Source: Phoronis australis (lineage: Eukaryota; Animalia; Phoronida). From it: a stretch of DNA of 64,000 nt. The stretch is from assembly GCA_002633005.1 (NCBI GenBank), contig NMRA01000047.1:1229911-1293910 (forward strand), written 5' to 3'. The notes beneath the pieces are model-generated. The model worked only from the letters and a program-made list of their open reading frames with translations. It searched no databases and was not told the origin of the DNA. Of this stretch, positions 12,801 to 18,800 are shown piece by piece. Position 1 is the stretch's first letter, and each line of letters starts with the position of its first letter. The translations under genes and the position numbers were made by a program.

Positions 12801-15800
12801 GAGAGTCGAAAGGCCATCAAATGTGACATGATTGGTTATCCATTCGAAAATAAATCTTTGCCACAACAATCATTGGTGATCTCTCAGTTGATGTTAGAAA
12901 CTTATTGCTGTCATAAAAAGAAAAAAATTGAGATTTTTTATCACAGTTCAAGCAGCATTTTGCTCCCATAAAGCTAATCGACGTTGAACAGAGCCGTCCC
13001 GGGTCGAGATTAATAATGCTAGTACCACGCTAGAAAAGCAAAATCTCACAAGATTCCGTGAGATATTGTCAGTGAGAGCACATGATGTTTTTCTTGTCGC
13101 GAGACAGCTATTGAACTTTACACAGCGATAGAACTCCCCTTTGTCACGGAGTTAAGGAAGGGATTGTTTTCGCACTTCACACGTCACATGGAGGTACATG
13201 GCCATGGAAATATTTCCGATTTCAACTGTACGAAAGAACCGGAATTAAAAAACATCTTCAAGAAACGGGATTCTGTTCCGACGAACTTGGTTTTATCCAC
13301 TCGTTCAGCGCACTTCCATGTCTTCGATTGATTTCGGAAAGGCGGAACTTAGGCGAAATCACGCATGCACGAATATTTGTCAAGTTTATCCAACATTCTC
13401 CCATTGGAGTTGCAGCCCACAGCACACCAGTAATTCTTAGATGATATATAATAAACCGATAGAGTAATGCAACCCAGAAAAACTTGTAAAGAATACGACA
13501 ACAACAACACTTGGAGCTCCGATGGCGCGAAAACGAGGCTACAAAAGTGCTTGACGGATATTGCGGCATTGTGGGAAAATAGAGCGAGATTCTAGTGTCG
13601 CCTGTGTAATCTGGCACTACTGTTAATAATAACCAAAGAGCTTTGCGGTGTATAACCGCGCTCACCCGTTCCTGAATTATCATCAGTTGCCCAAAGAGAC
13701 AAATAGAGTCAAAGACAATGCGTGCATGTGCTATTTTCGAAGGGTTTGTCAACCCCGATAAACTTTGAAGCGCTTTCTTGGGTCGCTGACTTGTGTTATG
13801 TTCTTGTTGATAACGAGAATATTCAAGTTTTCCACAAATGAAAAAATCCAGTTTTCTGAAAAACTTAAGAAATCAGGAAAACTTAAGTTTTTAAAATTAC
13901 AAAAACTTAAGTTTTGTGATAAACTTAAGTTATCAGAAAAACTTAAGTTTTGTTAGTACAAAAAACTTAAGTTATTACTTGAAACTTAAGTTTATTTGTG
14001 AAAACTTAAGTTTTACACTTGAAAAAACTTAAGTTTTTCCTCTAAAACTTAAGTTATTTTCCAAAAACTTAATTTTTTTCGACAAAAACTTAAGTTTTCA
14101 GCGAAAAACTTAAGTTCATTTTTGTAAGGGATAGAATACCAGCAAGGAATATTATGAGACCGGTTTGATAAGAGTAGAATGCTTAATTCGATTTTCGTTT
14201 TCTGCGAAATGCAACATTAATCAGCTTATTTTTATGATTTTCAAATTAATTCCTTGAGTAGAGAGAAAATGCACCTTTAAGTGCATGAGGCGCTCTAAAA
14301 ATGTACTCACACTCCAGTACAACCCCCGGAGTTCAAGTTCAGTCTCCGTGGCTGAGGATCTGCCCCCAGGCTTACTACATTGTTACACCTTACTACGAAA
14401 GTAGATGCATGAGCTCTCACGTGCTCTGTAAGCACGGGAATGGCAAACAGACATTCATTTTTTAAAAAGGAAAATTTATCGCTCAATAATACAGAAGACT
14501 CAAACACATAAAGGAAGCACAGAGACAAATAATGTTCTTTTCATTTTAGTAAACAATTCCGTCTTTGATCACCTCTTTTTCTATTGAAATCAGTAATCCC
14601 TTCCTAAGTCAATAAACAACTCACTTGAAGTGTGAGGACATTTTCGGAACACTGTATTTAGACATACATTCATGTTAAATATGTTGTATACGCCTACACC
14701 GTAACGTGTAGCCCTATGGCAACAAATATACTCCCATTAAAAATATTCTAAAACAATTTTCACTGAAATATTACCTAGTTACTACTCCACAATGCTGTGG
14801 TATATATATGCACGGGATATAAAAGTGAACATCAAGACTACAAAAATTGTGAAAACAAATAACACACACATGAAAAATGTACCACTTACTACCATGCAAA
14901 AAATAGGAATAATCTAATACGAGTTAAACTCCTAATATTTTCCAAAGCCCTCAGCCCTCTTACCTGACTAGATGCGATTAACAGAACTATACATTTAAAT
15001 TGATGTGTAAAGTGCAAAATTCGAACGCAAAAAAAATAATTGAACATCCGGACTTACTTTGAAAAATTCTTGTGTCGTTCCGCCAATAGTGCATCCATAT
15101 TTGATCTCTGAATGACCCAAAAGATCATCCGGGGAACTGATGGGTACAATCAAATGCTCGACGGTGAGAAAAGCGGCTAGGTTGGCCGTGTAGGAAGCTA
15201 TTATGATTAGAGAACAAATCCACCACACCCCGCCTGTAATCCTTCCCGAGATGCATCTGTCAGAATCAACGGCACGCCAAGTCAACGAGGGTAAAAATCT
15301 TAAACTTTGTTCCGCACGTTTAACTAAAAAGGAGTAAAATCCCACAGCCCAGAAAAAATAGTCATTTAATAAAACACCGATGTGTAAATAGATGAAATGG
15401 GAGCTTTTCTTAAAAGACATGCAGTAATAATTCAGTGGTAGCGATTGAAGTTTCATGCAATCGACTATGAAAGGTAAAAACGTGAGAAAAGCATTTGAAA
15501 AACATGTACATTTTCTTCCTGTTGAGACTCAGAGCATGACGTAAACAAAAGGAAGCAGAAATTCGTTTCATCCTAATATGTACTGTTGTCTTCGATAAAA
15601 ATTCTTCAAATTGGGACAAAAATAATAATAATTAATTTAATAGTCATTTTCTACTTTCACAGATTAATATTGCGTTGCTGCAAACGTTCGAAATTTTACC
15701 AACTGATGTTTCTTGACGTCTTTAAAGAACCCTACTGAAAACAAAGTGAAATTTCGTGCCAACTTATTTTTGATGAGAATTTTGATATAATGAATGTCCG

Positions 15801-18800
15801 TCGCATTGTCTCCCAAACTGAAGAGCTTTTAAAATGGTTTCATGTTTTGTAATGACCTGTGGTAACACTCCTTCTCTGTAGTATTCAGTAAGACACTTTA
15901 GGAAGATTCAAAACTGATCTCCATTGGAAAAGAGTTGATCCGTACTAATGTTACTGTTATCGTACTGAAGTTCACTGCAAACTACCAAGGACTCAGCAAA
16001 ACAATGTGCTTGATTATCGATTAAGAAATGAACTTTCTGCTATGCCATGCCTATGAACAAAATACAAAATACATACTGTGTTATAGTAATAAAATAGGGC
16101 ATCCACGGGAAGTCATGCAAGCAGTACCATCGTGCAAACAAAACAAAAACTCAGAAAAGTTTAGCTTAAGCTGCTATCAAGAAATACGATCCAAAAGTTT
16201 AAATCGCAAGCAAAAAGAGTTTTAAAACATACACACTTACTTCAAAAAATGTTCTAGTTGTTCCGCCTTTTGTACAACCGTACAACATATATTTGTTATC
16301 CACCAAATCATTTGCCGATGTTATCGGTATGACCATATGTTCGACAGTCAAAAATGCCGCTAAGTTCGCCGTGTATGACGATATGATGATGAGAGTGAAA
16401 AACCACCACACACTTCCTGCAATCCGACCGGAAGGAGAACTGTAGGATGAAATAGAACAAAAATGGCTACTTTAAAGAGCAGAGAAACTATGTATAAGCC
16501 AGTTTACATTGTACAGCGAAAAAAGTAAAGTACACAAATTCTTGCAAAGCGGACAGTAAAAGATGAGCAAACTAAATAAATTTCAACTGTTTACATGGAA
16601 ATTTGTAGTCACAACATCGACTTGGCGAATCAAAATGCGGATCATCGGTGTAATAATTATAAAGAATAACCATTCTTCACATAATATAATATAGTTGTTG
16701 ATCCATCCTGGAAAGTTCATTGTACTGGGATTAAATCTGGCCTGCTGGACAATACTCAAGAAATTTAATACCTAGAACCTCGGAGGCATCACGCCTCCTT
16801 CAAAGGGAATTAGATACTGAAGGCGGTCCGATGCCTCCGAGGTACTGCAGGAGTTTAGGAAAGGTGTTCCGGGACGCTTTGTTCATCAAATCACTCAATC
16901 CCTGATTAACATACATGTTGGAGCTTGGTTTAAAGTGTCGTTTGCTTGGTGGGGGGNTGATGCCTGCAAGGTTCTGAGAGTTTAATGCTGTGAGTATTGC
17001 CCAGCAGACAATTCTTCATATTTTTGAACGAACGAGCGCTACAAAGAAAAGAGTGTCCCAACGAAGTAATCGCCCTTCAAATGGCAATAAATGCACAGTT
17101 TAAATTCATGTACACGTGATCAAAAAGGAATGTGGTCTTTCAACCAAAATAAATGCATCGCTTATTAACTTTGGAAGATAATTAATTGTCGTTAAACTTC
17201 CTTGACGTTTGGGTTCCAAGCAGGTCTATCATCACGCGATAAACTGCCGTTCTGAAAAACCGAGTCGTTTGTTTGCCATCTTACGCGCCTACTTTTACAG
17301 CATATAGTGAACCCGGGCACCGTTGTCTGATCCAAGAGAATTGAATGCGACCTCCTGAAGTGCCGTTGTCTGATCCAAGAGAATTGAATGCGACCTCCTG
17401 AAGTGCGAGCATATTTTGGGGCACCCAGTATATTTCGAAACTCTTTTAGTAAACTTAAAATGTAATTCTTCGCCCGTCCAGGAATGTTGATAATCAGAAC
17501 AATTAAACTTGTTGATCTGGACTCTCTCATACTTACAAACAAATCCATTAAGCTCACACTCTCGTTTGTTAAACATAGTAATTACTTCTATCGTTCACTA
17601 TTTGAGCAACTTGAGAGTGTAGTTGTCATTTGTCTACAATACAGGGTCTGAGTTTGCGAAAATAAGCTGTCCTGAGTTTACGGAAGTTCACAACAACACG
17701 AACTCGACAACAAACGAATAACCAGCCAAACAAATACCTGGGTAAAATATCGGCGCCTTGCTGCATGAAGCACCCTAGACTGAACCATAGGCTGTTGTAC
17801 AACGTGAAGTCGTCGCTGGGCTCGAAAGGACTGTATTTGCAGACCGCGTAAAGAACCAAACTCACTCCAATGTAGGCACAAATGATGCAAACCCAAACTG
17901 TTGTGTCGAGAGGATCCATAAAAGAGAACACGCCTGGTTTCTGCTTTTGTGGTTTCATTATCATAATGCTGATGCCGAGTGTCATGAATGGCTTTGAGAA
18001 GTCGACGACCCGTTCCCGTTGAGAGTTGATCGTGAGATCTCCTAGGGCAATATCTGCTCGCTGAAGAAAGCAAAATCGGAAGAGGTTTCAGCCAATGCTA
18101 AGTAAAATGGAGTGACGTCGTGACTTGTTTCTATTGAAAAATTTTGACGGTATATGCATGCGTATCGGTTTCAGTTATTGGGACAGAATCGGGATTTAGG
18201 GCCGAAATATGGATGCTGAATTTATTATTGGAAGGAATATACGTTTTGAAGTTATTCTTTGACCAGAGTTATGTAACAACAAAATCTGTTGCGCTTTTGT
18301 TGTTTTACCACAAATCCTCCGTTCTTGGCGTTGGCTACAGGTCACAGTGGCGAATCTAGGATACCATAAGGGGGAGGGGCCCAACATGTTGCCTCGGGGA
18401 ATTGGGCGAAACGCGACTGTATGAGCATAGGCCGCCAGGCGGCCCGAAAGTTGCGCAGCGGGGACCGGGAGTGTGGACCTTTTATTTGGAAAACCTATTG
18501 GTGGACCAAAAAAAAATGGGAACGCGATTACGCCCCCCTTCTCCACTACGGGTCCTAGTTGCTCTGAACTCAATATTTCGCCCGCTTCACGCTGTTGCTG
18601 TTTCATTTTGCTTGCGGCTGCCAAGGAGGGGGGGGGGGGGCTGGCCCTCTGGGCCCCCCTAAATCCGCCTATGGGTAATTCATTGATAAATTGGCCTCTG
18701 ACTTCATAAGTTCCACACACTTAAGATATTCGCCACTAAAGGCCTACCGAGTGTGGTTTACCTCTACAAGCAGTGTGCTCTGGAATACGAGTTGAAGCCG

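Follow-up and report, generated by a model that had tools for sequence, protein, structure and literature searches.

A stretch of 64,000 nucleotides (nt) from the genome of the phoronid Phoronis australis (contig NMRA01000047.1, positions 1,229,911 to 1,293,910; the whole stretch is hereafter referred to as the window) carries a gene for an AMPA-type ionotropic glutamate receptor in which a single exon, exon 12, is present in two tandem versions, referred to here as 12a and 12b. The exon encodes M3, where conservation among glutamate receptors is highest, together with the M3-S2 linker. The two versions probably form a mutually exclusive pair resembling the flip/flop exons of the vertebrate AMPA receptors, in which 12a would be the form used by default and 12b an isoform of restricted use, altering the tuning of gating while the gate itself stays the same.

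The dimensions of the pair given in an earlier note on this DNA were reproduced on re-measurement: both exons lie at the coordinates claimed (Table 1), both are 199 nt long, of phase 2-0 and open in frame, with CAG before and GTAAGT after, and they are identical at 41 of 66 residues and at 129 of 199 nt. A re-count likewise agreed that all nine nucleotide differences within a motif of 14 residues common to the two copies are synonymous. The last two letters of the upstream exon are AG, and the frames agree with the junction residue that had been claimed, the codon shared with exon 11 encoding Ser (...LPS) if 12a follows and Arg (...LPR) if 12b follows.

The reading frame is complete with either copy alone. 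Joint inclusion of 12a and 12b leads to a stop after 728 codons, 43 codons into 12b and 586 nt before the last junction, and omission of both leads to a stop after 648 codons, 428 nt before the last junction; both kinds of transcript would be expected to undergo nonsense-mediated decay. The earlier proposition that the length of 199 nt enforces exclusivity is upheld in so far as both errors give early stops, but this length exposes the errors to decay and does not by itself enforce the choice. Since a stop arises on double inclusion, and the intron of 984 nt between the copies permits such inclusion, 12b might be regarded mainly as a poison exon, which shifts the frame when included with 12a and lowers receptor output through decay. 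Such a role is improbable, as it would make constraint on the protein needless, yet 12b has kept its own frame and an intact gate motif while its synonymous sites have become saturated.

The duplication is confined to exon 12. When all 17 exon peptides were compared by tBLASTn with the 64-kb window, which is the scope of all statements on copy number made here, no other exon was found to be doubled, as the earlier note had held in describing the gene as otherwise single-copy. The same holds for its statement that the exon equivalent to the vertebrate flip/flop exon is single, for which one match (11230-11113) was obtained. Only the exon itself and about 40 nt behind it can be aligned between the two copies, the remaining flanks being unrelated. 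An echo of the second haplotype in the assembly was considered and is ruled out by these unrelated flanks and by the nucleotide identity of 65%.

Both copies are old. Synonymous divergence between them is saturated (proportion of synonymous differences, pS, 0.75, with 15 of 20 fourfold sites differing), while the nonsynonymous proportion (pN) is 0.23 and bootstrapping puts the upper bound of dN/dS at 0.25. In neutral simulations at 0.5, 1.0 and 1.5 changes per site, not one of 5000 replicates at each level retained 41 identities or the motif of 14 residues; 5-11% of the simulated copies of the exon remained stop-free. Because of the saturated synonymous sites, a dN/dS below about 0.25 and a shared intron element of 34 nt described below, both copies have evidently been held under purifying selection for long, as had been supposed in the earlier note.

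The origin of the pair can also be traced. Residues are numbered here by position in mature GluA2, position n of the exon corresponding to residue n+594, and residue frequencies refer to 230 non-redundant homologous segments; these remained of the 398 motif hits obtained among 494 proteins once gapped, cut and repeated segments had been dropped. In a quick tree of 139 rows and 66 columns, 12a and 12b are sisters with a Shimodaira-Hasegawa-like approximate likelihood ratio test (SH-aLRT) value of 85, and they have in common two private residues, H628 (found in 1 of the 230 homologues) and T650 (found in none). An exon of 199 nt with the same AG..GT/GC borders is present in 73 of 80 homologous loci (the best 80 of 498, 15 of which span both neighbouring exons). 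As the copies are sisters and share H628 and T650, the pair evidently arose by tandem duplication of this ancestral exon within the lineage of the gene itself.

The signals that could govern the choice between the two exons were examined in the flanking introns. The pyrimidine share of the acceptor is 0.76 for 12a and 0.59 for 12b, within a range of 0.47-0.82 for the 16 acceptors of the gene. Behind the two donors, positions +7 to +40 contain a U-rich element identical at 22 of 34 nt, the highest value among the 120 donor pairs of the gene (mean 9.1, standard deviation 2.7, next highest 19; shuffle p about 1e-4), whereas the best matches of the element among 73 homologous donors had only 15 and 16 identical positions. 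Since this intron stretch is better kept than the synonymous sites, its conservation points to a shared splicing element, although gene conversion may also be the source of the likeness. Simple steric exclusion between the two exons is rejected as improbable, the intron between them being too long for it at 984 nt. A docking selector for the two donor elements was sought, and the best joint partner (-16.2 kcal) lay within the values from 30 permutations (-15.6 to -20.4 kcal). Of 100 shuffled controls, 6-17 equalled the best helices flanking 12a or 12b, and 2 equalled one that involved both exons, among three tested region pairs. Two further features of these introns were observed. A 13-bp complement between 16627-16615 and 15287-15275 (-20 kcal) spans the site of 12b that resembles a branch point and, being matched by 17 of 100 shuffles, is of interest as a lead only; and at 17320-17405, in the intron before 12a, there is a perfect tandem duplicate of 43 nt, part of which complements the 12b acceptor at a level not above chance.

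The simplest model appears to be a regulated choice by proteins with decay as a backstop. Splicing factors would choose between the exons through the weaker 12b acceptor and the U-rich donor element, with neither steric hindrance nor a docking helix. Reliance on decay has precedents: according to the accessible part of PMC4165533, 14 of the 19 Caenorhabditis elegans clusters made up of exons with a length not divisible by three lean on decay to some degree, and a backstop of this kind has likewise been suggested for flip/flop in the accessible part of PMC8257547.

Transcription was examined in three raw-read runs bearing the same species label, 18-19% of each being read, with splice joints listed from three reads upwards. 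At the low depth of these data exon 12a is seen to be transcribed, with 225, 276 and 241 bases in the sense direction in the three runs, or about two reads per run and six in total. At a likeness of 85%, run X2 also covered 84 bases of 12b in the region of the conserved motif, and no base of the adjoining exon 11 end; these bases were discounted as support for 12b, as they lie in the motif region, away from the junction, and may stem from another gene. For run X3, the 12a depth of 241 bases and 60 bases at the start of exon 13 together correspond to two reads of 151 nt, and the 60 bases are discontinuous in the binned depth from the other exon 13 reads. This arithmetic of depth fits a predicted direct join of 12a to exon 13. 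It also bears on whether the window might join two paralogous genes, one contributing exons 1-12a and the other exons 12b-16, through an assembly error or an old unequal crossover. Neither a long read nor a contig in the RNA runs examined crosses the stretch, and no listed junction links 12a to exon 13, as would suit such a join; even so, a join of this kind is very improbable, since among the 17 exon peptides only exon 12 is doubled, the flanking introns are unrelated, the private residues and the donor element are common to both copies and the X3 depth is what two reads extending from 12a into exon 13 would give.

The residues that differ between the copies were examined with respect to their positions in the channel. 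The equivalents of GluA2 615-628 are identical in 12a and 12b, and these include T617, A621 and T625, which together with M629 form the constriction of the channel according to the accessible part of PMC9068512. Of these four residues only M629 differs, being replaced in 12b by L, which also occurs in 18 of the 230 homologues. The alphaF motif GTT and T at position 650 are the same in both copies; this motif was the main determinant tested in PMC13648236, in the part of it available, and its first G marks glutamate-selective receptors. A change of agonist between the isoforms is unlikely, because the alphaF GTT and position 650 are identical. The earlier note had described the pair as a candidate switch for the channel gate and had named agonist response among the properties that it might tune, and neither, as worded, finds support in the identity of these positions. 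From its proposal of a flip/flop-like switch apart from the vertebrate site, what survives is the old intragenic duplication, the different exon and the frame logic, and the wording of a gate or agonist swap has to be given up.

The differences are found instead in the lower M3 (F607I, F608C, T609S and S614A in 12b relative to 12a), at M629L and in the M3-S2 linker. This part of M3 is in contact with M1, M2 and M4 and forms part of the cavity wall. Residues of 12b in this part are rare among the 230 homologues, with T601 in one, S609 in two and A614 in seven. Conversely, 12a has a canonical M3 and an odd start of S2, with N642 (0 of 230), Y644 (2 of 230) and M645 (1 of 230), where 12b is more canonical. 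On these counts the divergence of the copies is complementary, 12b being odd in the lower M3 and 12a at the start of S2. Photo-crosslinking at F608 of GluA2 gave the most potent inhibition of opening and F608 matters for gating, as reported in the available part of bioRxiv 10.1101/449181; a search of the literature on F607/T609 and K641/E644 gave nothing useful beyond F608. The substitutions in 12b would thus repack the lower M3 and alter M629 and the M3-S2 linker, with possible changes in open probability, kinetics, conductance or pore block, while the agonist would likely still be glutamate. The isoforms would accordingly differ in the coupling and packing of the gate and not in the gate or the agonist site, and 12b would probably be found in few cell types or stages. 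A bolder form of the proposal, to which slightly less than an even chance is given, is that different neurons make use of the two exons and that 12b makes a working channel whose lower M3 (I607, C608, S609, A614) is unprecedented among the 230 homologues, so that splicing would retune the inner helix and the gating linker by a route evolved apart from flip/flop.

Several observations weigh against a flip/flop-like role of 12b. At a likeness of 90% no read fell on 12b in any of the three runs, at the very low depth available, and no splice joint of at least three reads was obtained for 12a or 12b. No RNA docking site exceeded its shuffled controls. Among the 31 positions conserved in at least 90% of the 230 homologous segments, 12b departs from the consensus at six and 12a at one, which also fits a recent relaxation, and I607 and C608 of 12b occur in none of the homologues. 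The tests for clustering of the changes in 12b are borderline and suggestive only: none of the six falls within the 11 conserved positions of the gate core (chance 0.053) and three of them are adjacent (chance 0.06). The search for relatives that might have conserved 12b yielded no match above 71% identity for any exon of the gene in three protein searches, a search of 1.84 billion representatives and a metagenome scan. The functional effects given above are themselves predictions by analogy to GluA2.

Some of these observations also fit the main competing explanation, namely that 12b, long a working alternative exon, was silenced recently and has begun to degenerate, so that 12a alone is in use today. 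The absence of 12b reads, the six changed positions, the unmatched I607 and C608 and the longer branch of 12b in the tree (0.93 against 0.49 for 12a) are what such silencing would give, and a very recent relaxation of 12b may have occurred. It is nevertheless considered unlikely, since 12b is free of stops and indels, retains its CAG and GTAAGT borders and the donor element and keeps 25 of the 31 conserved positions, its changes spare the gate core, and those in M3 are all small or apolar, as about 68% of random changes would be at each site. The RNA data also leave room for 12b, the 95% upper bound on its share being 63% to 39% with 3 to 6 independent fragments, so that, with reads as few as these, 12b may still be a minor isoform. 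A mutually exclusive pair with 12a as the default form is therefore retained as the probable explanation.

The features of the gene are listed in Table 1. Pfam matches to Lig_chan and Lig_chan-Glu_bd were above the cut-off on four exon peptides, and Pfam and the alignment together give the receptor layout of amino-terminal domain, S1, M1, M2, M3, S2 and M4 with the SYTANLAAF motif. In a quick tree of the receptor core with 20 rows, the gene groups with 13 AMPA-labelled rows against six kainate rows (SH-aLRT 100), these labels being our own and the delta/AKDF, epsilon and NMDA rows being left out; by the same tree the animal is an invertebrate bilaterian and probably a protostome (SH-aLRT 88). 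A tree of 42 rows, from which four named rows dropped out through motif mismatch, agrees with the AMPA grouping. The best full-length matches, from Lingula, Haliotis and Lineus, are about 40% identical and the gene is thus divergent. With the glutamate-site numbering and the tolerated variation taken from the available part of PMC13648236, the ligand-site residues T501, R506 and the alphaF G..T are kept in the alignment, and Y471 is changed to H, P499 to D and LE to LD. As judged from the layout and the trees, the gene belongs to the AMPA class of ionotropic glutamate receptors, and a glutamate-gated cation current is predicted.

Table 1. Positions in the window of the predicted receptor gene, its discussed exons and the splice elements around the exon 12 pair
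Feature	Position	Strand	Remarks
Whole predicted gene	9726..34993	-	16 exon positions, with exon 12 present twice; 913 codons with either 12a or 12b alone
Exon 1	34993-34888	-	signal peptide; GC donor
Exon 11	17738..18060	-	end of S1, M1, M2 with Q-Q filter; last letters AG
12a donor and U-rich element	16201..16240	-	GTAAGT; element at +7 to +40, 22/34 nt identical to 12b element
Exon 12a	16241..16439	-	199 nt; M2-M3 loop, M3, M3-S2 linker and start of S2 (GluA2 595-660); RNA reads
Intron between 12a and 12b	15257..16240	-	984 nt
12b acceptor	15257..15300	-	pyrimidine share 0.59; branch-point-like TTGAC about 26 nt upstream
Exon 12b	15058..15256	-	second 199-nt copy; no RNA seen at 90% likeness
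12b donor and intron element	15018..15057	-	GTAAGT and copy of the shared intron element
Exon 13	12261..12520	-	S2; LD replacing the LE motif; common downstream exon
Exon 14	11113..11230	-	equivalent of the vertebrate flip/flop exon; 118 nt; single copy

Some other features of the gene and its surroundings were also observed. The first intron has apparently a GC donor (GCAAGT, at 34888, the end of exon 1), and most homologues have an M1-M2 loop longer by about 11 residues. The constant exons at 20794-21024, 17738-18060 and 12261-12520 carry the unusual ligand residues noted above, with LD-SP in place of LE-ST. Intron 13 contains at about 11350-12030 a long repeat rich in CAT/CAC, which reads as poly-His on the minus strand. 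Two related transposon-like elements with THAP domains lie at about 18820-20460, in intron 10, and about 5200-6500, a Pfam hit being obtained for the first only, and in each of the three RNA runs this element family is strongly transcribed.

No paper on a duplicated M3 exon was found in the openly accessible literature, subscription papers and bioRxiv supplements being outside the search. In the accessible part of PMC13520880 (2026), splicing in the invertebrate AMPA receptors studied there is given as still to be examined, and five peptide motifs of the present gene are absent from 12 of its 13 supplementary files; the accessible text of PMC6307864 contains neither 'splic' nor 'exon'. The kind of arrangement is known, as duplicated alternative exons recur at other sites of invertebrate glutamate receptors, and the new element is the M3-exon pair. 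If 12b is used, the pair would amount to a natural paired experiment, with subunits identical but for 26 residues around an unchanged gate, by which the roles of lower-M3 packing and the M3-S2 linker in setting open probability, kinetics and block could be tested, and it would mean that a switch of the flip/flop type arose independently at a different exon. Taken with the duplicated M2 and S2 exons of other invertebrates, it would suggest that almost all exons of the receptor core have somewhere become splice switches. Interest is tempered by the facts that duplicated exons of ion channels are already known, that the gate core is not swapped and that the use of 12b is a candidate.

Comparable arrangements were looked for among related receptors and other channels. 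A second M3 exon was found in none of the 80 best homologous loci, including the 15 that span both neighbouring exons, and no alternative M3 segment was found in the nine isoform groups compared. A likeness is seen in an NCBI protein of 191 residues from a 1.7-kb contig (P0001), which contains two tandem M3-exon units identical at 34 of 46 compared residues, apparently through read-through of a short intron. It is a second candidate M3 pair, known from its protein sequence alone, and differs from the present one in grouping with kainate-type rows. M3 duplication is thus uncommon in the sample and may not be unique. Equal-length channel variants also exist in the kainate-type cluster of Cherax quadricarinatus (XP_069951021/029/032/037), with four M2 segments among eight cluster members; there, the receptor is of another class, the pore loop one exon upstream is swapped and M3 is the same in all eight. 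The same cluster (P0084, P0165-P0171) shows two alternative M4/C-terminal ends in addition to the four M2 segments. Other duplicated core exons were observed in passing. An AMPA-type gene on a metagenome contig (L026) has the exon after M3, of about 130 nt and covering the first half of S2, twice (6701-6830 and 7286-7415), both copies being open and AG/GT-bounded and so a candidate mutually exclusive pair, and a Strigamia maritima gene model (P0003) has two successive M2 segments at residues of about 1450-1535.

Exons 15/31 of invertebrate NALCN, described in the available part of PMC3557258, resemble the present pair in that duplicated pore exons tune a channel by splicing. However, NALCN is an unrelated four-domain channel in which residues of the selectivity filter are swapped, as shown at the RNA level, whereas in the present gene the filter exon is single and it is the inner helix and the linker that differ. 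A close parallel is vertebrate flip/flop (GRIA1-4), where two homologous exons of equal length, which is likewise not a multiple of three, are found in an AMPA receptor gene; decay presumably clears the errors, and the accessible part of PMC8257547 describes no other exclusion mechanism. The flip/flop exons are of 115 nt, differ at 8-10 of 38 residues, encode the end of S2 and are of early-vertebrate origin (PMC13520880, accessible part), whereas the present exons are of 199 nt, encode M3, differ at 25 of 66 residues and lie in a gene whose flip/flop equivalent is single, the pair being known from the gene with RNA reads on 12a only. As far as its exon structure indicates, the exon 12 pair works like flip/flop and is not flip/flop.

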